From: a virus
Length of the DNA: 64,000 nucleotides
IMG/VR virus record: IMGVR_UViG_3300017613_002552
Span: 4,943-68,942 of that record
Reading direction: 5' to 3' (one strand)
In this document: positions 6,249-63,632 of the stretch, in pieces
How the letters are laid out: every line of letters begins with the position of its first letter
Position numbering within the stretch: position 1 is the stretch's first letter
The notes under the pieces: model-generated
Seen by the model: only the letters and a program-made list of their open reading frames with translations
Databases searched by the model: none
Told to the model about the DNA's origin: nothing
Translations under genes and position numbers: made by a program

Positions 6249-6716
6249 ATGAGCGGACCAGCAGTAGAAGACAGAGTTTCACGACTTGAAGCACAAGTCA
6301 TGTGGAGACGCGGTATTTTCGATGTGCTATACGACTCCTACGGTGGGCTTCAACAGAGCCTTATCGATGCACAGCGCACCCTAGAGGAGCGGCGGAATGA
6401 TGAGCTTGCTGCCCTCAGAGCATTCAAGGCAGCAAAAGCGCTGTTCGAGGATGGCCTAGCCATTGCCCTGATGAACGAAACGGGAAAGGGAGGACGGCTA
6501 ACTGGTGGGGCGGCAGATACCAGGAGGCTCATCAGGGAAGGTCTTATCGCCGAATTGAAGAAAGGAAAGCTTTCCCTGGAATGGGATGCCTTCCAGTCGG
6601 CAGAGAGGGTACTTGACCGGGCGACTATGGAAAAGGATGTTGCCCTTGACGAATTCAGCAAAATTCGGTATGCGGCCCGAATGACCTCCGGCCTTGCATA
6701 CGCACTAGGAGGATAA
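6249..6716 (+). CDS. hypothetical helical protein
   Basis: AGGAGG SD, tightly packed in operon. Confidence 0.7.
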   Translation: MSGPAVEDRVSRLEAQVMWRRGIFDVLYDSYGGLQQSLIDAQRTLEERRNDELAALRAFKAAKALFEDGLAIALMNETGKGGRLTGGAADTRRLIREGLIAELKKGKLSLEWDAFQSAERVLDRATMEKDVALDEFSKIRYAARMTSGLAYALGG

Positions 6717-10452: not shown

Positions 10453-10796
10453 TGACAGGCAGAAAGTTCGATGAGAGGGACCTGCAAATCATAAGGGCCA
10501 TCGCAACAAACGACCCACCACCATCTTGCCAGGAGCTAATGAAGCTGACCGGATTCCTTTCAAGTTCCTCTGTGTTTGGCCGCCTTGAAAAACTGAAAGA
10601 CCTTGGCCTCATCGCTTGGAAGGAAGGGGAGTACGGGAAGAAAAAAAGGACCCTCACTGTCACTAGTGAGGGTCAGTTTTATGCTGATACCTATGTCACG
10701 GCAGAGGATGCCAGCCTACGCATCCACTGGCACCCCCCCCAAAGAAAGCTAACTGGCAGGCTTTTCTTGCGCGTCAAGAGAAAAAAGCCAAAATAG
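10452..10796 (+). CDS. LexA-N-terminal-like winged-HTH regulator lacking the peptidase domain
   Basis: PPSCQELMKLTGFLSSSSVFGRLEKLKDLGLI. Confidence 0.75.
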   Translation: MTGRKFDERDLQIIRAIATNDPPPSCQELMKLTGFLSSSSVFGRLEKLKDLGLIAWKEGEYGKKKRTLTVTSEGQFYADTYVTAEDASLRIHWHPPQRKLTGRLFLRVKRKKPK

Positions 10797-11354
10797 ATCG
10801 GAAAGGGTTGAGGTTGGCAACTGTTTTTCGCTTAGTGCCTCAATCCCAAGTGGCGCAACACCGATCTCTACCTCCCCCTCACCAATCTCCTCCATTGCCT
10901 TCTCCATCTCTTTCTCTGCATCCATTCTTGCTTCCCCGACGAGAATTTTGCCCTTGGCAACCGCATCGACAATGGTTTCCATTATGGCAAAAAAGTCTTC
11001 ATCTTCAAGTCCGGCGAGAGAAGTTGCAGCAGCCTCCCTATCCTTGCCATTCACGGCAGCAATTAGCCCCCTTTGGACCTTGCCGTTGGAGCCAGATAGC
11101 TCTATCCCTACGCCGTGCCTGTCAACGATCTCTTCCCTTTGCTTATCCCAAGCAACTGTGATTTGCTCGTGCTCATCCGCTATTTTTCTGTACATCATGC
11201 TGGCGTAAAGCTGCTTCAGGGGATTTTCCCAAGGGGAATCAAAAAAGACCGAGAGGGCAGAGGGAAGAAATCTGTCCTGTCCCGCGACCTTTCGCGGACT
11301 CATGGCCCTTCTCAGGCTCCTGATTTTAACCTTTACTGTCTTCTTGCTTTCCAT
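10749..11354 (-). CDS. hypothetical protein at the end of the tail arm
   Basis: AAGGAGGT SD, own promoter at 11381-11409. Confidence 0.75.
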   Translation of the reverse strand: MESKKTVKVKIRSLRRAMSPRKVAGQDRFLPSALSVFFDSPWENPLKQLYASMMYRKIADEHEQITVAWDKQREEIVDRHGVGIELSGSNGKVQRGLIAAVNGKDREAAATSLAGLEDEDFFAIMETIVDAVAKGKILVGEARMDAEKEMEKAMEEIGEGEVEIGVAPLGIEALSEKQLPTSTLSDLFWLFSLDAQEKPAS

Positions 11355-11380
11355 TTACCTACCTCCTTTTTAGTTCCTCT

Positions 11381-27473: not shown

Positions 27474-27941
27474 TCAGCCCTCCTTTAGTGGAATCATACG
27501 TTCGCCGGGCCGACTCTTGTACGGCTGGCCGTTCTCGTCAACTATCTCACCCGTACTGAGCCTGAAGACTTTTCTCCCGCTGACATCTGCATACCCACTG
27601 GCAGCACCCTTCCTCCCAAACATCTTCACGTCACCACCGGTGAGGGCATCGAGTATCATCTGAACAGGGTTATCGTTCTGCCGTCGCTCCTCCTGGTATG
27701 GAGGTACGTGCTTGTAGTCTTTCGGGTCCCCTCCGGCGAGAAGAAAGTTCTCATACCTCTTCTTCTCGTCAACATCCATCGCCACGCTCAGTAAGCAGTA
27801 CCAATCTGGCACCGGCACATCGAATTGGAGGTACGTCAATTCGATGTTGCACTTCTCGGCAATGAGTTGTGCTTGTTTCCACCAAGCAAGTAAGTCTACG
27901 CCAGGCTCACCACCATCGCTGGCGTACCTGCTTAGTTTTTT
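27474..27941 (-). CDS. tail assembly chaperone gpT segment (translated by -1 frameshift from gpG)
   Basis: Frame open from the slippery site to TGA 27474: KLSRYASDGGEPGVDLLAWWKQ...TYLQFDVP... Confidence 0.85.
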   Translation of the reverse strand, partial: KKLSRYASDGGEPGVDLLAWWKQAQLIAEKCNIELTYLQFDVPVPDWYCLLSVAMDVDEKKRYENFLLAGGDPKDYKHVPPYQEERRQNDNPVQMILDALTGGDVKMFGRKGAASGYADVSGRKVFRLSTGEIVDENGQPYKSRPGERMIPLKEG

Positions 27942-28300
27942 AGGGCTTCATCTGCCTCGTCTTCACCAAGTCCGGCCATCGAAGCGAAGCTTGCGCCCAA
28001 AACTGCATTCAAGGATTCAACGTATGTGATGTTTTCCAACTCTTCTGCTGTCACCCCAAGAAGTGCTGGCAGGCCGGTTGACCAGAACCAGTCATCGGCA
28101 AGCATTTCGCCGACCACCGAGAATGCTTCAGCACCCTCATCATCAGAGCCGATGAACCGACCAAGCTTGTTCATCACATAGTTTACGGCCTGTACGCCGC
28201 GCTTACCCTTCGGCTGCTGCCACTCCACCTTTTCGCCGCCAAGCTTGAACGATTTGAAACCGGTGTACTTTTCCTCTACTGTCTTCTTCTCTTCTGCCAT
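27932..28300 (-). CDS. tail assembly chaperone gpG
   Basis: Between major tail and tape measure genes; ends in a slippery site. Confidence 0.85.
   Translation of the reverse strand: MAEEKKTVEEKYTGFKSFKLGGEKVEWQQPKGKRGVQAVNYVMNKLGRFIGSDDEGAEAFSVVGEMLADDWFWSTGLPALLGVTAEELENITYVESLNAVLGASFASMAGLGEDEADEALKN
27935..27941 (-). other. -1 programmed ribosomal frameshift heptamer A AAA AAC
   Basis: CTA AAA AAC TAA at the end of gpG; -1 frame is continuous with 27474..27839 ORF. Confidence 0.88.
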
Positions 28301-28309
28301 CTCTCTCTC

Positions 28310-33764: not shown

Positions 33765-33793
33765 ATAATACCATAAAACTCTTATGGTGTCAA
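33765..33793 (-). promoter_or_regulatory. sigma70-type promoter TTGACA-N17-TATTAT for the protease/capsid operon
   Basis: Consensus -35, TG extended -10; spacer is palindromic. Confidence 0.75.
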
Positions 33794-35083
33794 GTGGGTT
33801 GATGGGATTACATTGACACCAGTTTTGTTAAGTTCAGCGGCGAGAGCGTAACAGCTTTTGATTTTCTCCTCGAATAAACTGGCGGTAGTATCCCAAGAAA
33901 GGCTTCCAGCCAGCTTTAAGCCACGAGCTATCCACATCTCTCGCTCAACTTTATCTTCGTAAAGGTAAAGAACTGCCTCGGCCATCTCCGTGCAACTCAC
34001 AAGGGGCAACTGAGCGCCGGTGTGCCAGAAATCCACGGCACTGGGCTGCATCATAACAGCGCTCTCGCCATAGATTTCCGATCTTGCAAAACCATCGTCA
34101 GTTGTAATTACTGGAACACCGCAAGCCATTGCTTCGATGGCCGGTAGATTGAAGCCATGAGCACTCGCCGGATCAATGTAGACATCGAAGAGGTTCATCA
34201 TGCTTATGAAATCCAGCTTTGACAAATTTTCTAGCTCCTGCTCCTCTTCTACTGGTAGCGGGAGATTCAGTAACTCTTTCAGGTCCCCACTTCTTGGCCT
34301 ACCTACAAACTTCCTGCCAGATTGCGCAGGCTTGAGAGTCACCACGTCTTCAACGCCAAACTCTTTGATCATCCAGCCGAGTTCCCATCCACCAATATGG
34401 CCGTCGCCCTTCTCCTCGCAGTGGAGATAAACCATGAACTTCGGGCCGATCCGCTCCTTCAGTTGTCGGGCCATTCCTAGTACGGCGGGTTGACGATTGG
34501 TACGCTTGTTCACGCCAACCATTCCAATGATGAACTTGTCACCCCACCCAACGATTTCCTTCAATTGCATTCTAGTTTCTTCATCGTATCGGCGGAATGG
34601 GGCATGATCGGCACCATGATACACATAGTCAACTGCATGACCATACTCCATTAACACATCCCTTCCCCACTTTGTGTAAGTCACTGGCTCCTTTACTATC
34701 GAAACCTGTGTAACAACGTGTGGGTTCAATGGGGAACCTTCTATCGGGAAATACGTCACTGCCGGGAGAAGCTTACCAGTAACGGCGAGGGTGCCAAAGC
34801 GGTTTCGCAGCGTTCCAGGGTCTCCAAGGAAAAAGATCACATCTGGGTCGGCTTGCTGCAAGAAATCCACAGAGCACCTGAAACCCAACGGGTCATTTGC
34901 CGGTACTGGGTAGTACATATTGTATGGCGAAATGTCACTTGGAATTACTCGGTGCATAGCACCGAGGACACTTACCTCGAATTCATCCATCGGCCAGCGG
35001 GACATGATAGCCCTGGCTACGACGCCGAATCCTGAAAAAATGAATGGCGAATCTCCAATGTACGCGACTTTGATTTTGCTCAT
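33782..35083 (-). CDS. GT4 (GT-B) glycosyltransferase
   Basis: SGFGVV N-terminus; DVYIDPASAHGFNLPAIEAMACGVPVIT; LSWD. Confidence 0.9.
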   Translation of the reverse strand: MSKIKVAYIGDSPFIFSGFGVVARAIMSRWPMDEFEVSVLGAMHRVIPSDISPYNMYYPVPANDPLGFRCSVDFLQQADPDVIFFLGDPGTLRNRFGTLAVTGKLLPAVTYFPIEGSPLNPHVVTQVSIVKEPVTYTKWGRDVLMEYGHAVDYVYHGADHAPFRRYDEETRMQLKEIVGWGDKFIIGMVGVNKRTNRQPAVLGMARQLKERIGPKFMVYLHCEEKGDGHIGGWELGWMIKEFGVEDVVTLKPAQSGRKFVGRPRSGDLKELLNLPLPVEEEQELENLSKLDFISMMNLFDVYIDPASAHGFNLPAIEAMACGVPVITTDDGFARSEIYGESAVMMQPSAVDFWHTGAQLPLVSCTEMAEAVLYLYEDKVEREMWIARGLKLAGSLSWDTTASLFEEKIKSCYALAAELNKTGVNVIPSTHLTP

Positions 35084-35104
35084 CTGTCTTCTCCTATTTT
35101 TATT

Positions 35105-44215: not shown

Positions 44216-45773
44216 ACATTGGGTTCCTTGGGTCAAATTCTGACCAATCACTCATGATTTCGACATCCGCTCCATCGATAACACCCATAGTCGGTATAAG
44301 AATGTTGACCGGATCGAAATCTGTATCAAGCTCTGTCGGGACCATTGGCAGAGAGACTATTCTCTCCGGCATTTCAAAGTCGTACCCACCCATCTCAACT
44401 AGGGCATCATACGCCAAGATAGCAGCAATTACAAGGTCATCATATTGTCCAGATGGCGCAGAGTATTGATTGTTTCCAAGGTCCTCATAGGTGAGAAGCT
44501 GGTAATAAAGAGCTTTGCTTGTAATAGCCACCAAGCCGCCAGCAAGGGCAAGCGCGAACTGATTCACAAGCCTCGGCTTGCTTTTTGATGTTGTTCTTGA
44601 GAGTCCAATTTCGGACACGTCATCTTCAGGCAAAATGTGCCTATTCTCTACCGTTAGACCTGGGCCATTCTCCTCGATCAGCATTAGACCGGGCCACTTT
44701 TTGTGCCATGCAGACACATAGCCCATCATTTCTACGCGCTCGCCGCCGATCTCTTCTGTTTTCCCCGCCCACTCATCAAGGGGCATCTGGTTTGCTTCGC
44801 TTGCAACCTCCATGCCATACTCATTGAAGGTGACAACTGCGTTAAAGTCACGAGTGCGAACCTTCTTATTCCGCCTGATTTCGGCAGAGTCAATACCAGA
44901 AGCAAAGGTCCCCTTATTGACTGGCAAATCGGCGAGTTCTTGTGGGAGCCCATGCTCAAAGAAGCACTTTGCAAGGTAGGTTGGGTCAAACGCAGGAGAA
45001 CCAGTGCCAAGGAAAACAAGCTCAAACTCCTGGTTAATTTGATTATCGGTCATCCCATCCGATGCATCCGCCAGCCATTTACTTCCAAAGCCGCAGTCCG
45101 TGTAGTGGACCCGTATCGCCCTGAAGGTGCTTTCCCCGCCGTCTGCCTGCATCCACAAACGAGCAAACGCACCAGAAACACCGTTCGGCGAAGAGGCTGC
45201 AACCACCTGACCACCATGAGAGGTCGTTGGCTTAATCGAGGTCCAGGTCTCCTCTGCGTTGTCGAGGTGGGCAAACTCGTCAAGGAAAACAAACCGCGCA
45301 GTATCACCACGACCGGAATCACCGGTGGTTGTGAGTGAGTCAATGCTCGATTCACTGGTTATGTGCTTACCTGCTCGCCTGTGAACAACTGCCAGGCGCG
45401 TTTGTGATGTGGATGAATATGGCCTTCGGATGAAGTCTGGGAAGTTGTCAATAACAAACTTCACCTTGGCGAGCAACTTGATCGCCTTCTTCTCTTTTTG
45501 GGAAAGCAAGAGGATTTCAATGTCTGGATTGAAGAGAATCAGCCAGGCCACAAAACCAGCAATTGTCCAAGATGCACCGACTTGACGGCTCTTGAGAATA
45601 ACCGCGTTTTGGCCGCTTTGCAAGTACTCAATGAGGTCTTCTTGCCAGGGGTACGGGACCCACTTGATCTTCCCTCTGATAATATGCCTCAAGTGGCCGT
45701 ATTTTTCTATGGTGTACAAGGCAGATGCGCGACAACGCTTATACTCGTCTGCCTCTTCCCTGGTCAACTTCAT
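44190..45773 (-). CDS. terL: terminase large subunit
   Basis: PYPWQ, LKSRQVGAS, FLDEFAH, SSPNG, GIDSA, IEENGPG, YDDLVIA. Confidence 0.95.
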   Translation of the reverse strand: MKLTREEADEYKRCRASALYTIEKYGHLRHIIRGKIKWVPYPWQEDLIEYLQSGQNAVILKSRQVGASWTIAGFVAWLILFNPDIEILLLSQKEKKAIKLLAKVKFVIDNFPDFIRRPYSSTSQTRLAVVHRRAGKHITSESSIDSLTTTGDSGRGDTARFVFLDEFAHLDNAEETWTSIKPTTSHGGQVVAASSPNGVSGAFARLWMQADGGESTFRAIRVHYTDCGFGSKWLADASDGMTDNQINQEFELVFLGTGSPAFDPTYLAKCFFEHGLPQELADLPVNKGTFASGIDSAEIRRNKKVRTRDFNAVVTFNEYGMEVASEANQMPLDEWAGKTEEIGGERVEMMGYVSAWHKKWPGLMLIEENGPGLTVENRHILPEDDVSEIGLSRTTSKSKPRLVNQFALALAGGLVAITSKALYYQLLTYEDLGNNQYSAPSGQYDDLVIAAILAYDALVEMGGYDFEMPERIVSLPMVPTELDTDFDPVNILIPTMGVIDGADVEIMSDWSEFDPRNPMYDLRQQIG

Positions 45774-46117
45774 TAGATATCGTCCCTATCAAATTCTTCT
45801 TCTCCGTCACTAGAATAGGCAGTAAGTGCTTGCCATGACTCTATTAGGGCAACGGTATCCTTTGGCGAGCACGAACCTTCAGAAACCAAAGAGAAGATTT
45901 TGTGGCGCATTATCTCTGCTTGTACAGCAGCATCGCTTGAGCAGTTACCATATCCAGCAGAAAACCTCTTGTGCTGCCATGAATCCTCAGAACCCCAAAC
46001 CTTCACGGTATCATGGCTGACACCAATGCGTTCTGCAACATCCTTGTAGCCCACGTCATTGCCAGACATGAAGTACTCGAATGCTCTTTCTTTATCGGTA
46101 AGAGGCTTCCTATCCAT
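45773..46117 (-). CDS. terS: terminase small subunit (HTH)
   Basis: YKDVAERIGVSHDTVKVW....W; TAATG overlap with terL. Confidence 0.75.
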   Translation of the reverse strand: MDRKPLTDKERAFEYFMSGNDVGYKDVAERIGVSHDTVKVWGSEDSWQHKRFSAGYGNCSSDAAVQAEIMRHKIFSLVSEGSCSPKDTVALIESWQALTAYSSDGEEEFDRDDI

Positions 46118-46123
46118 ACACGA

Positions 46124-46152
46124 ATTGTAACATAAACAGCCAGCAATGTCAA
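46124..46152 (-). promoter_or_regulatory. sigma70-type promoter TTGACA-N17-TACAAT, probably giving a leaderless terS mRNA
   Basis: Extended TG; -10 ends 6 nt before ATG; no SD. Confidence 0.8.
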
Positions 46153-46160
46153 GGGGGTAC

Positions 46161-46189
46161 TTGACACGAAAAGTGAAATATGCTATACT
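46161..46189 (+). promoter_or_regulatory. sigma70-type promoter TTGACA-N17-TATACT (divergent partner)
   Basis: Back-to-back with the terS promoter, -35 boxes 8 bp apart. Confidence 0.8.
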
Positions 46190-46262
46190 ATGTCACACGA
46201 GTAGCTGTATTATAAAGAGAGGATAGGTGTGACGTGGTTGACAGCTTAACATTTTATGTAAC

Positions 46263-46730
46263 TTGGAAAGCAACGGTGGTAATGCTATGCGCGGCCTCCT
46301 TCATCTTGGGCATCATGGCAACAGTGATCTTCCTGGCGATCCTGTCGAAGAAAACAGAATCTCAGGAGTAATAGAATACCCCCCGAAGTGGGGCTTTTTG
46401 ATTCCATACCAAGGAAGGCCGCTGACACTGAAAGATGTAGATGTGGAAGCGCTCGAATGGATGCGAGAACATTTCAAGGAACGCTACGAAGACGAGCCGA
46501 TTCCAATTAAAGGTGTCCTGAAAGAAACAGCAAGTCCGTTCGTGAGGAAAACAAGTATCCTTCCGCATCTCTTGAGGCTTTGGGCGAACGGGCGCATAGA
46601 AAGGTTCGCCAAGGGCTTTCACACTTTATCTGGGAGACCTAACTATGGTAGCTACTTTATCTGGCATTCCTGGGCCGGAGATCACATTGCTGACAATGAT
46701 CTCAGAGGTCCCGCTTATTTTATGCCGTGA
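46263..46730 (+). CDS. hypothetical protein, possible winged helix
   Basis: First ORF after the divergent promoter; start uncertain. Confidence 0.6.
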   Translation: MESNGGNAMRGLLHLGHHGNSDLPGDPVEENRISGVIEYPPKWGFLIPYQGRPLTLKDVDVEALEWMREHFKERYEDEPIPIKGVLKETASPFVRKTSILPHLLRLWANGRIERFAKGFHTLSGRPNYGSYFIWHSWAGDHIADNDLRGPAYFMP

Positions 46731-47199
46731 CGAAGACACGGCAATGATCATCCAGGCGGCCCTTCACTCTCACCTTACAAGAGAGCCGCCGGTTATGGTT
46801 GTCGGCGAGGAAGAATGGCCTGAGAAGATGCAGTGCAGTGCAGCGCTCATCACGCCCATTCAAATCCTTGGCTCTGGTGAACCAAAAAGTTTCTCCCTGC
46901 CAGATATTGAAAGGCTGACAAAAAGCACAAAAAAGGTCCTTTCTTCCATTATGCGCTACAAGATGGCAAACGATGGCAAATTCCCTCCAATTCGCTGGAT
47001 TGCCGCCGCAGCTTTTGGCGAAGATACCCCACTATCAAAAAGAGGGGTCAGAAACGCAATTAAGGAACTTGAGAGAGCAAAATTCCTGTTCAGGCCAGAT
47101 GAACAAACCATAGATTACAGAACAAACTTTGGCAGATGGAGACCTGATCCATCTATCGCTCGCTCCGCTGGCCTTGAGGTAGAAGAATATGAGCGTTGA
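46645..47199 (+). CDS. winged-HTH DNA-binding protein (start probably 46744)
   Basis: FPPIRWIAAAAF...SKRGVRNAIKELERAKFL. Confidence 0.6.
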   Translation: MVATLSGIPGPEITLLTMISEVPLILCRDEDTAMIIQAALHSHLTREPPVMVVGEEEWPEKMQCSAALITPIQILGSGEPKSFSLPDIERLTKSTKKVLSSIMRYKMANDGKFPPIRWIAAAAFGEDTPLSKRGVRNAIKELERAKFLFRPDEQTIDYRTNFGRWRPDPSIARSAGLEVEEYER

Positions 47200-47224
47200 C
47201 AAGTTTGCAGATGTGATGTATAAT
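47196..47224 (+). promoter_or_regulatory. perfect consensus promoter TTGACA-N17-TATAAT
   Basis: Read directly. Confidence 0.85.
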
Positions 47225-47230
47225 AGAATC

Positions 47231-47300
47231 ACTGTCTTCTTCTGTTGCCATTTGCCGCAGAGGGCGCAAACCGGCTGGCTGCCCAGTCGGTTTGTGTTTT
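47231..47300 (+). ncRNA. candidate small RNA 1 (~70 nt)
   Basis: Consensus promoter, CU-rich 5' seed, 15-bp terminator stem 47264-47297 plus U run; no ORF. Confidence 0.6.
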
Positions 47301-47314
47301 GAAAGAAAATCCCA

Positions 47315-47587
47315 ATGTCACAAAATGAAAAAGAACTCGAACTTGCAAGGATTGCAAAATCAATAGAGACTGACTTCTGCGGCGATTTCGCAGAGGCACT
47401 TGCTGTCTTCCAAAAAGCAGCGGCCAAATCGTATGAAGTATTATGCAAGGCTATCATAGAGATGCACAACAACATGGCCGAAATCTATGTCAAGTATTCT
47501 GAAGAAATCGATGGCAGGGCACTAAGCCAAGAGGAGAAGCGGAAAATCTTCCTCGACCACATCACATCCACAATGGAGGAAAAGTGA
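47315..47587 (+). CDS. hypothetical protein
   Basis: GTGA overlap with GT2 gene. Confidence 0.6.
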   Translation: MSQNEKELELARIAKSIETDFCGDFAEALAVFQKAAAKSYEVLCKAIIEMHNNMAEIYVKYSEEIDGRALSQEEKRKIFLDHITSTMEEK

Positions 47588-48366
47588 TCGGAATAACCTG
47601 TGTTGCATACAACCAACCTGACCTTCTCTTGAAGATGGCAAGAACGGCGAGCGAGAGTGGGCACCCTATTCGTTTCTACATTACCAGAACCTCAATGATC
47701 CCACAGGTAACTCTAGCTTGCGATGAAATACTTGAGAAATACGATGCAGTTGTCGATGGAAGCGGCAAAAATATTGGCGTCTCTCGCTGCTGGAACAACA
47801 ACCTGATCAAGATGCAAGAGGACGAATGCGAGTTCATGATGGTCGTCAACGACGATATCTGGTTTGAACCGGGCGACGTTGACTTACTCATCTCGGCTGC
47901 GCTTGCACACAGAGACAACTACGCCATCCAGTGCGCAGGCCCCAACCTTACCCTGAATGCCCGTGTTGGAGATCATGGCTTCTCGTGTGTAGTTTTCAAC
48001 CCAATTGCCCTGGAAACACTTGGCTATTTCGATGAAAACTTCTTCCCTGCCTACAATGAAGATGTTGACTATGCGTACCGGGCCGGTCTCGCCGGTCTTG
48101 TTGCTCATATCGAACCAAACACACAGGTTCATCATGTTGGAAGTGCCGCGATTCAGACAAATAGCAAGCTGGCAAATCAAAACCACCGGACCCACGGACT
48201 AAATGACCAATACTGGACGAGAAAGTGGGGGTGTTCCAAGGGCGGGAAGGGCCACTCTCGCCCATTCAATAACCAGGAATTTCACCCATACTACATCTCA
48301 ATAGAAAGCAGACACGAACCATATCCCGGTTTCAATAGGGCAGATCGGGAAGTAGTCGTAATTTAG
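47584..48366 (+). CDS. GT2 (GT-A) glycosyltransferase
   Basis: NIGVSRCWN, VNDDI, GYFDENFFPAYNEDVDY..R, HHVGS. Confidence 0.9.
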   Translation: MIGITCVAYNQPDLLLKMARTASESGHPIRFYITRTSMIPQVTLACDEILEKYDAVVDGSGKNIGVSRCWNNNLIKMQEDECEFMMVVNDDIWFEPGDVDLLISAALAHRDNYAIQCAGPNLTLNARVGDHGFSCVVFNPIALETLGYFDENFFPAYNEDVDYAYRAGLAGLVAHIEPNTQVHHVGSAAIQTNSKLANQNHRTHGLNDQYWTRKWGCSKGGKGHSRPFNNQEFHPYYISIESRHEPYPGFNRADREVVVI

Positions 48367-48380
48367 AAAGGAGAAGACAG

Positions 48381-49601
48381 ATGGTTTGCCGTATTTGTAG
48401 TGGGAGCCTAATGACCTCCCTAGACCTCGGAGAAATTTATCCTTCCGCTTTTGTAGACGGCTCTTTTCTTGGGCAACCAAAAAGGCTCACTCTGACAAGG
48501 TGCTCCGATTGCGGGATCGCGCAACTCCTCGAAACAATAGACCCAGACAGGATGTACCGAAACTACTGGTATAAGTCCAGCCTCAACAAGACAATGCTCG
48601 ACGCACTCAAGGATATTGTCGGCGGGGCACTCGAAGTGTTCAACTTCCCGCTGCACGAAAAAATGGTGGTGGTAGATATTGGCGCAAATGATGGCTCGAT
48701 GCTCTCGATGTTCCCGGACAGCTATGTGAAGATAGGATTTGACCCTGCAAAGAACCTCGCGTCTGAAGCAGATGAAAAATGCGATGTCTTCATAAACGAC
48801 TACTTCTCAGCGAGTGCCTACCCACTTAAAGTAAAAGCAGATATCATCACGGCAATCGCAATGTTCTATGATTTGGATGACCCCTATACATTTCTGCGCG
48901 ATGTCAAAGAAATTCTCGCAGAAGAAGGGGTTTTCATTGTCCAAATGACCGATCTCTTCTCCATGCTCAAGGCAAATGCCTTCGACAATATTTGCCACGA
49001 GCACCTTGTTTACTACTCACTTGAAAACATGATGAATCTGATGAATAGCATTGACCTTCGAGTGTTCGATGTGGAATACAATGAGGTAAACGGTGGCTCG
49101 CTAAGGGCTTATATCTGTCACATGGGCAGCAGTAGAAAAACTAAAGAATGTGTCAATGTTGCCCTTGCAGTGGAAGACGAATACTTGGACCTATGGCACG
49201 ATCCAATAGGAGCTTTTGCTTGCAGGGTAAACACGGCGAGAAAAGGGTTGGCCTCCTTCCTGCACTCCTCGGCAAGTGCGGGGAAGGTAATTTACGGCCT
49301 CGGAGCATCTACAAAGGGGAACACGCTGCTCCAGGCTTTCAACCTCGGCAGACCGGTTATCAGAGCGATTGCAGAAGTGAACCCCGACAAATTTGGCCTA
49401 AGAACAATTGGCAGCGATATCCCAATCATACCAGAACCACAAGCAATTGGCGATGGCCCAGATATGTTCCTCGTGCTCCCCTGGCACTTTAGGGACTTCT
49501 TTATCAAAGAATTTGGCAGCTACCTTTCGATGGGCGGATCACTCGTTTTTCCGCTCCCGACCCCACAAATAGTAACAGCGAATGGAGTATACAACCTATG
49601 A
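48381..49601 (+). CDS. NDP-sugar C-methyltransferase
   Basis: CRIC...CSDC zinc site, DIGANDG, FDNICHEH, GASTKGNTLL, LPWHF, LVFPLP. Confidence 0.9.
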   Translation: MVCRICSGSLMTSLDLGEIYPSAFVDGSFLGQPKRLTLTRCSDCGIAQLLETIDPDRMYRNYWYKSSLNKTMLDALKDIVGGALEVFNFPLHEKMVVVDIGANDGSMLSMFPDSYVKIGFDPAKNLASEADEKCDVFINDYFSASAYPLKVKADIITAIAMFYDLDDPYTFLRDVKEILAEEGVFIVQMTDLFSMLKANAFDNICHEHLVYYSLENMMNLMNSIDLRVFDVEYNEVNGGSLRAYICHMGSSRKTKECVNVALAVEDEYLDLWHDPIGAFACRVNTARKGLASFLHSSASAGKVIYGLGASTKGNTLLQAFNLGRPVIRAIAEVNPDKFGLRTIGSDIPIIPEPQAIGDGPDMFLVLPWHFRDFFIKEFGSYLSMGGSLVFPLPTPQIVTANGVYNL

Positions 49602-49831
49602 GCAGCATTGCAGAAAAGTCAACCGCAACCCTGATTGACGAACTGATCACCACGAGCATGAAGTGCTGGAACGCCCAAGAGAAGGTCGTGGCTGGCGGCG
49701 ATGACAAGGAAGTAGCAGAAGCGGCGAAAGAGGCGCAAGAAACCAACGCTCGCCGCAACAAACTAATCCGAGCCATAGATAGGCGTCTTGGTGAGGAAGA
49801 AAGGACACAACTAGGTAAAACCTATGGCTAA
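49598..49831 (+). CDS. DUF4254-like small helical protein
   Basis: LIDEL......W..QE...TNARRNKLIRAID. Confidence 0.6.
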   Translation: MSSIAEKSTATLIDELITTSMKCWNAQEKVVAGGDDKEVAEAAKEAQETNARRNKLIRAIDRRLGEEERTQLGKTYG

Positions 49832-50585
49832 ATTCGCAGTTACCCATCCAGGAAAAATTGGAGACACGCTTTTTGCCCTTCACGTCGCTCGTTCTGTATC
49901 AGAATCAAGGGGGTGCGAACCAGTTGACTTCTACACATCGTCCTACTGCACTCCGCTGAAGAGGCTCTTTGAGTACCAGGATCATATCGAGGAACTTATA
50001 GTGCCAGACGGCTATGTGATCGAGCGGATGGACATGGGGGTCCAGCCCTGGCGGATGACCGTGCCCAACAAATACGAGACTGTCTACCACCTTGGCTTCC
50101 GAAAAGTGCCCAACACTACCCTTCATTTCTTTATGGCCGACAGCATTGGAATCCAGCGACCAGAAATCTTCTACAAGTACCCAGAAGACTTTCCCGCACC
50201 AGAAGAACCATATATGATCGTTGCACCAAGGGGCGAAACAACCTTCAAGGGGCTCTTCTATGACGTAATCGCAAAGTCCCCAATCAAAACAGTACAGATC
50301 GGCGGCAAATGGGAGTTCATTGGCGGCGGGGAAAAGACTATCGATATGACAGGTACGGACTTTCTCGAAACAGCAACCCTCCTAGCCCACGCAACTGCCT
50401 TCGTTGGCCTCATGTCTAGCCAGCTTGTTTTGGCGAATGGGTTTGACATACCAAAGGTTGCCCCACACGATGGACGCTCATGGGATATGACTCATGTGGC
50501 TTACTCGCCAACAAACTTCTACCCTGTCAATCCAACAGCAGAGCAAGTCATCGAGATTGCAATGAGCAGGAGCGAAGAAGGATGA
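49824..50585 (+). CDS. GT9 (heptosyltransferase-like) glycosyltransferase
   Basis: GKIGDTL, VQIGG, DMTG.DFLETA.LL..A..FVG.MS. Confidence 0.75.
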   Translation: MAKFAVTHPGKIGDTLFALHVARSVSESRGCEPVDFYTSSYCTPLKRLFEYQDHIEELIVPDGYVIERMDMGVQPWRMTVPNKYETVYHLGFRKVPNTTLHFFMADSIGIQRPEIFYKYPEDFPAPEEPYMIVAPRGETTFKGLFYDVIAKSPIKTVQIGGKWEFIGGGEKTIDMTGTDFLETATLLAHATAFVGLMSSQLVLANGFDIPKVAPHDGRSWDMTHVAYSPTNFYPVNPTAEQVIEIAMSRSEEG

Positions 50586-51310
50586 TCTATTCAAAAACGC
50601 TGCACCCAATGGACTATGATTATCTTACAGTTGAAAAAATGAAGCTGGCAGAGGTCGGAAGAATGCTTGGAACTGTGCAGCACCGATTTGAACACAAGCA
50701 CCGGGCGTGGGAATACGGGATGGTCATGTCGGCAATTTCTCAAGTGGAGGGAGAGCGCATCCTAGATGTCGGCGGAGGAGGTTCTGTCTTCGCCGTCGCC
50801 GAGGCAGGCAGGGGCTACAATACTGTCCAGGTTGATCCTGGCGATGTTGGCTCCTGGATAGAAAGGCAATCCTCGCTCCTGACAGACCCATCAACTCTAA
50901 GGCATATCCAAAAAGACTTCATGGCGCTCAATGCTGAAGAACTCGAATGGAAACCGGACTTTGTTACTTGTATATCTGTACTGGAGCACGTACCAGATGA
51001 TACCCCTTTCTTCCTGAAGCTCCTTGATTTCGTTAGCGATGGAGGGCTCTTGGCCCTAACTGTTGATTTCCATCCATCCGGCGAGAGCATGGTTGGTGGA
51101 CACATACGAACCTACAACCAAGAAGCTCTCTACAGAATGTATCAACTCGCCAAAGAGCGCGGCTTTGAGTGGTTTGTAACAAAGCCGCGCCATCTACTCG
51201 AAGATCGGAGCAGAGAGAAATTTGACTACGCCTACTTTGACACCCACGTCAACAACTACAATTTCGCCTCACTCATCTTACGAAGGGAAACTTCATCGGA
51301 GAAAAAGTGA
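50582..51310 (+). CDS. class I SAM-dependent methyltransferase
   Basis: RAWEY, ILDVGGGGS, CISVLEHV, GGLLALTVDF; ATGA overlap. Confidence 0.85.
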   Translation: MIYSKTLHPMDYDYLTVEKMKLAEVGRMLGTVQHRFEHKHRAWEYGMVMSAISQVEGERILDVGGGGSVFAVAEAGRGYNTVQVDPGDVGSWIERQSSLLTDPSTLRHIQKDFMALNAEELEWKPDFVTCISVLEHVPDDTPFFLKLLDFVSDGGLLALTVDFHPSGESMVGGHIRTYNQEALYRMYQLAKERGFEWFVTKPRHLLEDRSREKFDYAYFDTHVNNYNFASLILRRETSSEKK

Positions 51311-51315: not shown

Positions 51316-51368
51316 AGGGTAGTAGGAGGAAATGAAAACAAAACAGCCAATGCTTTGTAATGACACCC

Positions 51369-51397
51369 TTGACACCTAGTATCTATGGTGGTATAAT
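51369..51397 (+). promoter_or_regulatory. perfect consensus promoter TTGACA-N17-TATAAT with extended TG
   Basis: Read directly. Confidence 0.85.
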
Positions 51398-51403
51398 GTA
51401 GGC

Positions 51404-51474
51404 ACTCCTTTCTCCTCCTTGTGAGGAATGGCGGCGGGTACTTGCATGGTGTTCCCGCCGCCAGTTTTTCTTTT
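51404..51474 (+). ncRNA. candidate small RNA 2 (~70 nt, anti-SD 5' end)
   Basis: Consensus promoter, ACTCCTTTCTCCTCCTT, stem TGGCGGCGGG/CCCGCCGCCA plus T run. Confidence 0.6.
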
Positions 51475-51488
51475 GATTTCTCAGGAGA

Positions 51489-51824
51489 TTGAAGATGCGC
51501 CGTTCCCAAACGGCCAATAGAATACAGCGAAAGAATCGGCCTTCTCATCAGGTTGGTTGTACTGTTGGCGCTTCGCTGGCCGCCAATGGTCTTGGGAGCC
51601 AGCCTGTTGAGAGTGCCGATTTTTCGCATCTTGTGAACTGGATCAACAAAGAAAAGGAAGAGCCACCTTGGAATACTCGCCGACTGTTATGGTTCTGGGA
51701 TGGCAGCCTTGCACACCTTGGGCACTACTTTGGATACGGTGTGTGGTTTGGTAGTACAAAAACATTCAGCACTTTCACTCATTGGGCAGAGGTAGGGCAA
51801 CCAAGTCCGCCCACTACAGAATAA
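51489..51824 (+). CDS. hypothetical protein
   Basis: AGGAG SD; start TTG 51489 or ATG 51495. Confidence 0.5.
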   Translation: MKMRRSQTANRIQRKNRPSHQVGCTVGASLAANGLGSQPVESADFSHLVNWINKEKEEPPWNTRRLLWFWDGSLAHLGHYFGYGVWFGSTKTFSTFTHWAEVGQPSPPTTE

Positions 51825-61787: not shown

Positions 61788-63632
61788 ATGAGCAAAGAAA
61801 TACAAAAGCAGCAAGTAGAACTGAAGACAGTCGATCTCTGCAAATTTAGACCCGGCGATGTGTGTATTGACAGCAATCACGGGTCCTACGTGAAGATCAC
61901 CAATGTCGAAGAAGAGGACGGAAAAGTATTCATAACCTACAAAGAAGTCGATGAATTGAACGACGATGGTACTTTTACCTTATCAGAACGAACAAAGAGA
62001 TATGAAATAGACGACTTTGAGAGGTATGAGCGCCCAATTGTCGTGTCCAGGGGCGTTGACAATGTTGGTGAAGTAGAAAGAATGGCTGTCGAAGCCATGA
62101 AGAATCCAAGCGCTTTTGCCGCTGATGTTGGGGAAGATAAAGAGACCGTGGCACTAACGACAAGAATGGACAAAGATCACCTAGAGACAATGGAGGCAGC
62201 AAGTAGAGCCTCAATGGAGAGGGTGCAGGCAATTCAGGCAGTAATCGAGCGGAATGCCAGGCAGTTAAAAGCAATAGTCAGGAAGTACAAGGACCAGATT
62301 ATCCAAATCAAGAAAGTAATTGGTGTCATTGAATTGTACCTTGGCATTGAAGAAGAAATCCTTCAAATAAGAGATGGCTTTCCTGCCGACATGAACGAGC
62401 CGATCTGCTTTCAGCAAAGAGTACTGTATATGGATGAAGAGGTCGGCGATCCCCGAAGAGGCAAGGGTAGCGCATTCGGCATTGACTTTCAAAGGATCGA
62501 CGACTTTGACGATTGGGTTGTTAAACCCAAAAACCTTCGTGTTGCACTCCCTCACAAAAAGGGCGTAGTCGCCATGAAAGTCTCTCGCCAAAAGAGAATG
62601 TATAGCGAGGACCCGATTGTAAATTCCTTCCTGAATTCAAAAAACAACAGGACCTACCTGTTGATCCGTAATGGCGATAAGGTCTACCGAATTTGGACGA
62701 AGGCGATCATTTCTAACAAGTTATTTCCTGGGCCTACTGAGCTTGAAGACGCTTGGATAAAGGCAGAAGAAAGTGGCTGGAGCCACGATAGAGAGAAAGT
62801 GGGCGATGTAGAGTTCTCGTACAGAAAGAAAGCGATTCTGCTACAGGGCCTAATTGACAGGACAGAGGTCTTTCACCCCATGCCCAGGATGATCGATCTC
62901 TTTGATCAGTCAACGTATGACGAGGGCCTTGTAAAGACCATCTTCGATGCGGAAATCTCTCTCGCTCCACCGGGCCGCATAATGTACTCAGAGTGGAAGA
63001 AGAAAATCAACTCACAGATCGAACGCGGCGGCAGGGTATTGGTCGCAATTCGTTCCTCACGTGAACAAATAGGAAGTGATAGGCGAGATCGCTTCCTTAG
63101 ATACTACTCCAACGAGTTCAATTGCCCAAAAGCGCCAGGTTGGGGCGTGTACAAGGTAGAAAGAATTGAAACAGTCAAGAGGTTGTACTTTAACGATGCA
63201 GAGGGCCTGATAATTCTCTACCAGCCTGGCGGGGAAGTGTACACTGAATGGTATAGGAGTGTCAGGGAGCGCAGAAATAGAGTTTCCTTCATTCTCCGCC
63301 GCAACGACCCCTTTGTCCTGAACTACGATGCAATCTCCCTGGAGGACGTAGAGTGGTTTATCGACTGTCGTTATGAAAGAGAAAAATACCTGGACATGAT
63401 CCCAGTTCTATGGGAGATCAGAGATCGGCGTCTCGCCGAGTTGGAGTGGGAGAAAGATTTCGTCAAGTTGGTTGCAGGAAGAACCGGAGCGGCGGAAGGG
63501 TTGGTTTGGGAAGTTGTCGAGTGGTGGAAGACCAAGAATATCTGGAAGAGGCCCATCATGGAAGATGATGCGAAGGCCCTAAGAATGATTGAGGCAAGAG
63601 TTAGAAGGAGGGCAAAAAAATGCACTTTGTAG
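61788..63632 (+). CDS. large hypothetical phage protein (614 aa)
   Basis: Long ORF with coiled-coil segment; no motif recognised. Confidence 0.8.
   Translation: MSKEIQKQQVELKTVDLCKFRPGDVCIDSNHGSYVKITNVEEEDGKVFITYKEVDELNDDGTFTLSERTKRYEIDDFERYERPIVVSRGVDNVGEVERMAVEAMKNPSAFAADVGEDKETVALTTRMDKDHLETMEAASRASMERVQAIQAVIERNARQLKAIVRKYKDQIIQIKKVIGVIELYLGIEEEILQIRDGFPADMNEPICFQQRVLYMDEEVGDPRRGKGSAFGIDFQRIDDFDDWVVKPKNLRVALPHKKGVVAMKVSRQKRMYSEDPIVNSFLNSKNNRTYLLIRNGDKVYRIWTKAIISNKLFPGPTELEDAWIKAEESGWSHDREKVGDVEFSYRKKAILLQGLIDRTEVFHPMPRMIDLFDQSTYDEGLVKTIFDAEISLAPPGRIMYSEWKKKINSQIERGGRVLVAIRSSREQIGSDRRDRFLRYYSNEFNCPKAPGWGVYKVERIETVKRLYFNDAEGLIILYQPGGEVYTEWYRSVRERRNRVSFILRRNDPFVLNYDAISLEDVEWFIDCRYEREKYLDMIPVLWEIRDRRLAELEWEKDFVKLVAGRTGAAEGLVWEVVEWWKTKNIWKRPIMEDDAKALRMIEARVRRRAKKCTL

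Follow-up and report, generated by a model that had tools for sequence, protein, structure and literature searches.

What is the role of a consensus host-type promoter that is followed directly by a terminator-like hairpin, in front of the sugar-modification genes of a phage? The question is raised by positions 47196-47300 of the 64,000-nt stretch of DNA analysed here (the window, bases 4943-68942 of the virus record IMGVR_UViG_3300017613_002552, which has 68,942 nt and 50% G+C; all coordinates are those of the window). An earlier note on this DNA had proposed that the unit encodes a small RNA (sRNA) which represses in trans the translation of five phage genes, the start regions of these genes being complementary to its 5' end, the seed. 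We find that this stretch has the anatomy of a short non-coding unit, that its seed stands in a relation to a sequence tag at these gene starts which is unique in the genome, and that a 5' block and the fold plan are conserved in related phages. The reading we favour, and to which we give a little less than an even chance of being correct, is that of a leader-derived RNA (the 47231 RNA, after its predicted first base) which ends at its own terminator and pairs with the tagged start regions.

A short non-coding unit behind an early gene

The perfect TTGACA-17-TATAAT promoter described in the note is present in the sequence (Table 1). It is the sole site with twelve out of twelve consensus matches within 45000-50000, and its -35 element overlaps the TGA stop codon of a 184-codon helix-turn-helix (HTH) gene (46645..47199; HTH184). 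The +1 is most probably A47231, the seventh base after the -10 element. From this base to 47300 the 70 nt fold with -35.6 kcal/mol (z = -5.33, none of 200 shuffles being as stable), and the minimum free energy (MFE) structure has an ensemble frequency of 0.75. Nucleotides 1-8 (ACUGUCUU) are free in this structure and are followed by a small hairpin (hairpin 1) and a long one (hairpin 2; nt 34-67), the latter having 15 pairs, three of them G-U, with UUU behind it. The core of hairpin 2 consists of 12 bp (47267-47278/47283-47294) with arms that are 92% complementary, a 4-nt loop and the tail TGTGTTTTG.

Neither an AUG nor a Shine-Dalgarno sequence is found in the predicted RNA. A conserved open reading frame (ORF) is absent from both of its strands, the ORF on the opposite strand having 32 codons here and 28 unrelated codons in the related contig L085. 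A 146-codon ORF on the minus strand (47035..47475) was taken as spurious. Searching Rfam with the 64-kb window gave no match at gathering score, and with 47100-47400 at E values up to 10 only five sub-threshold matches to small nucleolar RNA and long non-coding RNA models. The ~70-nt non-coding unit of the note therefore holds with regard to its promoter, its exposed 5' end and its terminator, all of which can be seen in the sequence, and the transcript is a predicted one.

Complementarity between the seed and five gene starts

The five complementarities quoted in the note were each found where it had placed them. At the start of the gene for the G-like tail chaperone (gpG) the RNA matches 13 of 13 nt at 28278-28290, to which the pairing of AUGGCA with UGCCAU has to be added (duplex -31.5 kcal/mol). 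At the start of gene 10749..11354 it matches 11 of 11 nt at 11335-11345, together with GGUAAAUGG opposite CCAUUUGCC including one G-U pair (duplex -29.4 kcal/mol). In both predicted duplexes it is the apical part of hairpin 1 which pairs with AUGGCA and GGUAAAUGG, respectively. The AGGAGAAGACAG leaders of the genes for a GT4 glycosyltransferase and a C-methyltransferase form 12 pairs each, one of them G-U, and at gene 6249..6716 15 of 16 pairs were counted by hand at 6259-6274. The tag is part of the 5' untranslated region (UTR) in two of the genes (GT4 and C-methyltransferase), and in the coding sequences of the remaining three it occurs in two different frames, which argues for a signal at the nucleotide level and not for a peptide motif. 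All five tagged genes have a Shine-Dalgarno sequence.

The agreement with chance expectation was judged on a set of 84 genes, called from ORFs and Shine-Dalgarno sequences by a simple rule, three of the starts being assigned manually. Windows from -20 to +30 were used for k-mer counts (3.0% of both strands), and the 26-nt seed was hybridized to windows from -30 to +30 in the duplex test. The 9-mer AGAAGACAG, the complement of nt 2-10 of the RNA, has seven copies, five of which fall into start windows (binomial p = 5e-7); one of the others lies within a portal-like gene and one is antisense at 47232-47240, at +2 of the promoter. It ranks second among the sixteen 9-mers with at least three start-region matches, the others being Shine-Dalgarno or start-codon contexts. 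For the first 14 nt of the RNA a 9-nt complement occurs in 7 of the 84 start regions. When all 14-nt windows of both strands are considered (n = 137,856), only twelve have such a complement in seven or more start regions; ten of these are the opposite strands of Shine-Dalgarno regions and the remaining two are 47231 and 47232. The predicted 5' ends belonging to the promoters at 46161 (+), 46152 (-) and 33793 (-) score 0 of 84 each.

As the proposal of the note implied, matches to the seed are commoner at initiation regions than inside genes: duplexes of -24 kcal/mol or below are reached by 6 of the 84 start regions and by 13 of 977 internal sense windows (Fisher p = 0.0024). None of 200 dinucleotide shuffles of the 26-nt seed reaches six start regions, nor does any of 83 decoys consisting of the antisense of other start regions (maximum four). 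Runs of at least 11 nt are found in three start regions for the seed and never in more than one for any decoy. By these motif, window and duplex tests, the link between seed and tag appears to be real and non-random. In a further test the whole 70-nt RNA was cofolded with 80-nt start regions, which charges the opening of hairpin 1 and of the target structure. The top net energies are modest, with -19.4 (gene 10749..11354, the best of 84), -17.2 (gpG), -15.3 (gene 6249..6716), -12.7 (GT4 leader) and -12.3.

The antisense copy at the promoter could also mean that the locus is itself a gene start on the minus strand, real or a remnant, and represents a sixth tagged start rather than a regulator. 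Around its ATG the opposite strand (GGCAAATGGCAACAGAAGAAGACAGT) resembles the start of gene 10749..11354, the tag being equally far from the ATG in both, and it is also similar to the gpG start. However, unlike all five tagged genes this ATG has no Shine-Dalgarno sequence, and its 32 codons are antisense to a consensus promoter and to HTH184. The counterpart in L085 (28 codons) is unrelated in sequence and has the tag elsewhere relative to the start, and the nearest promoter-like site on the minus strand reaches 9/12. We therefore regard such a gene start as extremely improbable.

Table 1. Positions of the promoter-terminator cassettes, the tagged gene starts and the leaders of related contigs
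Feature	Position	Strand	Description
Sigma-70-type promoter	47196..47224	+	TTGACA (47196-47201), 17 nt, TATAAT (47219-47224); 12/12 consensus matches
Predicted 5' end and core seed ACUGUCUUCU	47231..47240	+	nt 1-8 unpaired in MFE structure
Hairpin 1 (nt 9-33)	47239..47263	+	apical part UGCCAUUUGCC with anti-AUG CCAU
Hairpin 2 and U-run, intrinsic-terminator-like 3' end	47264..47300	+	MFE structure; found by terminator scan
Tail chaperone G by position, gene 27932..28300	28278..28303	-	13-nt tag AGAAGAAGACAGU, codons 4-8, plus AUGGCA
Start of gene 10749..11354, function not assigned	11335..11357	-	11-nt tag AAGAAGACAGU, plus GGUAAAUGG across AUG
Leader of GT4 glycosyltransferase gene 33782..35083	35084..35095	-	AGGAGAAGACAG immediately 5' of AUG
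Leader of C-methyltransferase gene 48381..49601	48369..48380	+	AGGAGAAGACAG immediately 5' of AUG
Gene 6249..6716, function not assigned	6259..6274	+	codons 4-9; tag AGAAGACAG at 6266-6274
Sibling cassette	51369..51474	+	12/12 promoter with TG, small hairpin, terminator with 13-nt arms, long U-run
Leader of L081 group (five near-identical contigs)			TTGCAG-17-TACAAT, then AUGCCCUCUCC...
Leader of L084			TTGACG-17-TAGAAT, then GUGCCCUCUCCC...
Leader of L085/L088			TTGAAT-17-TAAAAT, then ACACUGUCUUCUCCUGCGG...

The tag of gpG sits in an N-terminal extension of 16 residues, which is missing in five out of eight homologues. At its other end the G-like chaperone (27932-28300) stops at ...ALKN, where homologues extend for 8-12 further residues. 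The GT4 assignment is based on family matches, and the C-methyltransferase matches Methyltransf_14, Methyltransf_23 and Methyltransf_13; its gene belongs to the same operon and strand as the RNA and lies 1.1 kb downstream of it. A start region of 15 nt (AGGAGAAGACAGATG) is identical in the GT4 gene (35081-35095, head module, minus strand) and the C-methyltransferase gene (48366-48380, plus strand), and gpG and gene 10749..11354 have 16 bases in common with one change. An extra copy of GAAGACAGU is found at 61821-61833, at about +35 of ORF 61788..63632 if the upstream ATG is the true start of this ORF.

Leaders upstream of GT260 in related phages

A blastn search of 46100-48400 against phage records gave no match, scans covering most of IMG/VR with the HTH protein, with TerL alone or with the exact 26-nt seed gave no close relatives, and a word-based protein search with the HTH protein and gpG returned the window's own proteins only. 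A protein search with TerL found 45 matches on contigs of 46-97 kb, and a TerL alignment scan provided the usable relatives, the metagenome contigs L001, L002 and L081-L091. Their terminases are 51-65% identical to the one in the window (58% in the relative that keeps the block CACTGTCTTCT, see below). The gene order, with terminase, small terminase, divergent promoters, p155, HTH184 and, further on, the glycosyltransferase GT260, is kept in the relatives. Three further lineages reach GT260, and in each of them a promoter and a structured leader are situated directly upstream. In all five leaders (the sibling cassette of Table 1 being counted) the CU-rich tail is free and is followed by a small hairpin and then by one of 13-15 bp, with z values from -3.6 to -5.6.

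The 11-nt block CACTGTCTTCT is identical in this phage and in L085/L088, right after the -10 element and upstream of the GT260 homologue. No longer run is common to the two intergenic regions of this phage and L085, and its length is matched in 6 of 1000 shuffles; between the GT260 coding regions (780 nt; 47% identity at the protein level) shared runs do not exceed 10 nt. L081 and L084 share a different block, TGCCCTCTCC. The keeping of these two blocks suggests that the 5' end of the leader is under constraint and exists in two sequence types. In L088 the 9-mer GGAGAAGAC, an exact complement of its own leader, occurs three times elsewhere than in the leader, namely -10, -15 and -34 relative to starts, and part of this 9-mer is the Shine-Dalgarno sequence itself. 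The contigs of the relatives end short of the gpG and 10749 orthologues.

A scan of genome contigs with GT260 found distant cellular glycosyltransferases only. A GT260 alignment scan of IMG/VR yielded 80 loci, and no comparable leader was seen upstream of the nine which were inspected. Two degenerate seed patterns matched at least 119 stretches and 12 stretches, respectively, in IMG/VR; none of those listed had a fitting promoter or homologous proteins, and they were taken as chance.

Trans-acting RNA or cis-acting leader

A number of results speak against an RNA that acts in trans. Hairpin 2 lacks a U-run in L081, L084 and L085, where the Shine-Dalgarno sequence of GT260 follows within 10-20 nt; as the hairpin abuts the ribosome-binding site, the element is an mRNA leader in these contigs. 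Because it is the 5' leader of GT260 in three lineages, a leader-derived RNA fits better than a free-standing sRNA gene, and the sRNA unit of the note has to be modified in this respect, although here it is predicted to end at a terminator. Conservation is likewise divided, since the block CACTGTCTTCT is kept in L085/L088 but the tag is not kept on orthologues: in L085 the C-methyltransferase is without the tag and the homologue of p253 has it, and in this phage it is the reverse. With the leader 26 nt of the relatives no energy excess was found over 150 shuffles each in L088 (28 genes), L084 (24) and L082 (12), all of them partial loci. Within this phage, the best net cofold energy of -19.4 is equalled or bettered in 11 of 68 seed-shuffled variants, and five start regions are at -12 or below for the real RNA compared to a shuffle mean of 9.0. 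The site at the C-methyltransferase is outside the twelve best net cofold energies. Moreover, the longer identical stretches at GT4 and C-methyltransferase and at gpG and 10749 mean that the five sites may go back to about three independent events, and according to family searches the targets have no common known function.

However, shuffling of the seed also destroys hairpin 1 and frees 33 nt. The energy argument is therefore model-dependent, and it does not show the match to be random. Enrichment over shuffled seeds is thus found in the k-mer, window and duplex tests but not in the whole-molecule cofold. The same division applies to the caveat of the note that the frequency of GAAGAAG inflates chance matches: the motif and duplex tests exceed chance, the cofold energies do not.

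These results could also be taken to mean that the element is a purely cis-acting leader of the sugar-modification operon, be it an attenuator, a translational operator or a determinant of mRNA stability, and that the other start matches have no function. In four lineages it has a syntenic position upstream of GT260, and in three of them it runs straight into the GT260 Shine-Dalgarno sequence without a U-run, and in the MFE structure of L081 the CCUCU of the tail pairs with AGAGG of this Shine-Dalgarno sequence. Every leader has an upstream purine complement that could free the partner of the tail in read-through transcripts, and the energy tests (partial loci of the relatives, cofold against seed shuffles) are negative. 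On the other hand, it leaves unexplained that AGAAGACAG is the top start-region 9-mer apart from Shine-Dalgarno contexts and has its sole antisense copy at +2 of the promoter. The ORF p90 behind the terminator has no Shine-Dalgarno sequence to be sequestered, and the pairing of the tail with the p90 start is weak and outside the twelve best of 84. The RNA has one dominant fold, with just a 5-bp alternative visible by eye, and belongs to no riboswitch or leader family of Rfam. A leader peptide, as in attenuators, was not found, the RNA having no AUG. We consider a purely cis-acting leader, the strongest competitor of our own reading, somewhat unlikely.

The leader-derived RNA that we prefer would work as follows. 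The 47196 promoter would start an abundant transcript of ~68-71 nt, most of which would end at its own intrinsic terminator, and a fraction would read through into p90 and the sugar-modification operon and so supply the operon mRNA. The free 5' end ACUGUCUUCU would pair with the tag AGAAGACAG, which in at least five phage genes is placed at the ribosome-binding site or immediately behind it, and at the gpG and 10749 starts the CCAU in the apical part of hairpin 1 would add further pairs. As this pairing lies inside the ribosome footprint, it would lower initiation while the RNA is in excess. The sibling RNA from 51369 with its anti-Shine-Dalgarno tail may act alongside. The two ends of the transcript, the pairing in vivo and repression as the direction of the effect are deduced from the features described above, and a timing of assembly and glycosylation could result from them but is no finding. 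What remains of the trans-acting multi-target repressor of the note is a non-coding unit, a non-random link of seed and tag and a 5' block kept in one lineage, but no excess in cofold energy.

A sibling cassette and purine stretches upstream of the tails

The sibling cassette is located between a methyltransferase gene and ORF 51495..51824. Its RNA of ~70 nt, predicted to begin at 51404, has a z value of -5.12 and a free tail, ACUCCUUUCUCCUCC, which is anti-Shine-Dalgarno-like and presumably resembles the 3' end of 16S rRNA. This tail matches the Shine-Dalgarno regions of plus-strand genes by 7-9 nt; in the window scan it finds a complement in one of the 84 start regions at 9 nt and in three at 8 nt. 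A mini-ORF of 15 codons (51333-51380) with a strong Shine-Dalgarno sequence (AGGAGGAAATG) overlaps the -35 element of the 51369 promoter.

Each leader has a purine stretch that is complementary to its own tail and lies upstream of or inside the promoter. For the 47231 RNA this is AGAAGAA upstream of the promoter (47181-47187, plus strand), which is complementary to UUCUUCU (47237-47243), and in the sibling it is 51324-51330 with 51413-51419. The complement thus has 7 bp in both cassettes of this phage, where the partners are not significant alone, 11 in L081, 9 in L084 and ~15 with wobbles in L085. The centre-to-centre distances of tail and purine stretch, counted by hand, vary from 24 to 89 bp, which argues against a protein operator of fixed spacing and fits an RNA pairing that masks the tail in read-through transcripts only.

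This variation bears on the idea of a DNA-level site, in which a phage DNA-binding protein would recognise CTGTCTTCT/AGAAGACAG at an operator at +1 and at further sites in gene starts. The HTH gene adjoins, and in L085 the block forms one half of an inverted repeat that spans the -10 element, GACAGTG-N8-CACTGTC. In this phage, however, the repeat across the -10 element has just 5 bp, the inverted partners of the five cassettes are too variably placed for a dimer with fixed spacing, and all five copies in start regions have the sense orientation, within operons and without promoters. We find a DNA-level site very improbable.

The presence of two cassettes with a consensus promoter and a terminator (within 70 nt), on the same strand and ahead of gene blocks, also brings to mind a processive antitermination unit of the lambda pR'-6S-tR' (Q) or the nut/put kind, which would produce a short RNA until a phage factor permits read-through. 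The HTH gene ends inside the -35 element, and as all strong promoters are host-type, timing needs another layer. But the HTH protein matches HTH_36 (Pfam) and replication-initiator-like PHROGs and nothing else, hence no antiterminator family, and the second cassette follows a methyltransferase rather than a regulator. In addition, the relatives keep tail and hairpins without the terminator, and the tag at gene starts is left unexplained. Antitermination of this type is in our view improbable. By eye no TAnnnT-like pause hexamer was found in 47231-47250. A boxA/boxB-like reading of the tail and hairpin 1 was set aside since the hairpin-1 sequences differ between the lineages, and a rut-site reading was considered and set aside as well.

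Combining the leader-derived RNAs with 5'-terminal seeds, the sibling, the masking and a common turnover of seed and tag, one arrives at a whole layer of translational control. We regard this joint reading as doubtful.

Gene layout and promoters of the phage

The structural genes are found on the minus strand from 45773 down to 10749 and include terminase, portal-like protein, capsid, tape measure and, by position, the G-like chaperone. On the plus strand there are a short early block (46263-47199), the sugar-modification cluster (47584-51310) and the replication genes, which code for an initiator-like protein, a DnaB-like helicase, primase, clamp and SbcCD. A scan of the whole record detected five near-consensus host-type promoters (46161+, 47196+, 51369+, 46152- and 33793-). 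Identical contigs of the same phage at low depth were found in one DNA run.

The order of genes allows the simple explanation that hairpin 2 terminates the early rightward operon (46161 to 47300), the promoter lying in front of it by coincidence and the short RNA being a by-product. The terminator lies ~65 nt past HTH184, the last early gene, and a promoter followed by a terminator would stop both transcripts. This arrangement is, however, present twice in the phage, the 5' block is kept in L085, and the match of the tail to start-region tags is unique in the genome, so that we rate a mere overlap as quite improbable.

The ORF p90 (47315-47587) begins 15 nt past the U-run and overlaps the start of GT260. 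It is an orphan that lacks a Shine-Dalgarno sequence, family matches and homologues in the related loci. A gene for a small membrane protein precedes the leader in the relatives rather than following it. The divergent early promoters (46124-46265; 11/12 with TG) are kept in L081, L084, L085, L086, L087, L090 and L091. In every lineage TGTCAC(A) stands at the start of the rightward early transcript, and its inverted partner, TGTGAC(A), follows 20-70 nt further on; the two may form a conserved 5' stem or serve as an operator.

Comparison with known systems

By analogy, the mode of action would be most like that of the c4 RNA of P1/P7, a short phage RNA which arises at the beginning of an operon and, by pairing near their ribosome-binding regions, blocks genes further down (PMC8198154); such a block is predicted for the 47231 RNA too. 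Full repression of ant in the c4-icd-ant operon needs the C4 antisense RNA and a C4 binding site (PMC8198154). The 47231 RNA is likewise upstream in the same operon as one of its target sites, the leader of the C-methyltransferase. In contrast to c4, it has no match to the Rfam C4 model, and its 3' end is formed by a predicted intrinsic terminator and not by processing. Its seed is the extreme 5' end, with at least five dispersed predicted targets on both strands, one of which is in the same operon.

The RNAs sar and OOP each overlap their target gene on the opposite strand. One target gene each is given for sar (P22), OOP (lambda) and the aQ RNAs in PMC12197685. The 47231 RNA differs from sar and OOP as it is complementary to distant start regions which share a tag of 9-13 nt. 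For rnTrpL from Sinorhizobium meliloti and for 5' UTR-derived RNAs of E. coli, premature termination in the leader and action in trans on other mRNAs are described in PMC6614838 and PMC7815308. The 47231 RNA would likewise be leader-derived and is predicted to act in trans. However, rnTrpL originates from a ribosome-dependent attenuator with a leader peptide, whereas the 47231 RNA is phage-encoded and has no evident sensor.

In lambda, pR'-6S RNA-tR' together with Q represents a constitutive strong promoter whose nearby terminator leads to a short RNA in front of a block of genes. The 47231 cassette is similar in having a strong promoter and a nearby terminator ahead of a gene block, but Pfam and PHROG matches of the neighbouring protein revealed no Q-like protein and the leaders of the relatives lack a terminator. 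We know of no pairing of 6S RNA with start regions. RsaE, LhrC and RoxS, which are chromosomal RNAs of Gram-positive bacteria, have exposed C/U-rich stretches, with UCCC/CCC loop motifs, that pair with the Shine-Dalgarno regions of several mRNAs. The sibling cassette 51369 fits best to this group. The 47231 seed, in contrast, is not anti-Shine-Dalgarno and matches a specific tag beside or downstream of the Shine-Dalgarno sequence.

Significance

If our preferred reading is true, one short RNA would co-regulate at least five scattered genes, among them one for tail assembly and two, on opposite strands, for sugar modification, and there would be a reason for the identical 15-nt start regions of the GT4 and C-methyltransferase genes. 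As far as the cited sources go, sar, OOP, aQ and c4 each act on one neighbouring target, and a multi-target unit would therefore widen the known roles of phage RNAs. It would belong to a lytic-type phage of an uncultured sediment host. As our literature search was limited, no claim is made that such a unit is absent from print. Because seed and tags are short and exact, the reading is directly testable.

Should the joint reading be true as well, a phage group that depends wholly on host-type promoters would gain a translational layer of control. The 47231 RNA would recognise a dedicated tag, AGAAGACAG, on dispersed tail, glycosylation and unassigned genes, and the 51404 sibling would mimic the anti-Shine-Dalgarno sequence. 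Both RNAs would be masked by the upstream complement in read-through transcripts, leaving only the promoter-initiated copies active. Seed and tag would turn over together between the lineages, with a CUGUCUUCU type versus a GCCCUCUCC type, and the tags at gene starts would be (A/G)GAAGAC(AG) in L085-type phages and GGAGAGGGC in L081/L084-type phages.

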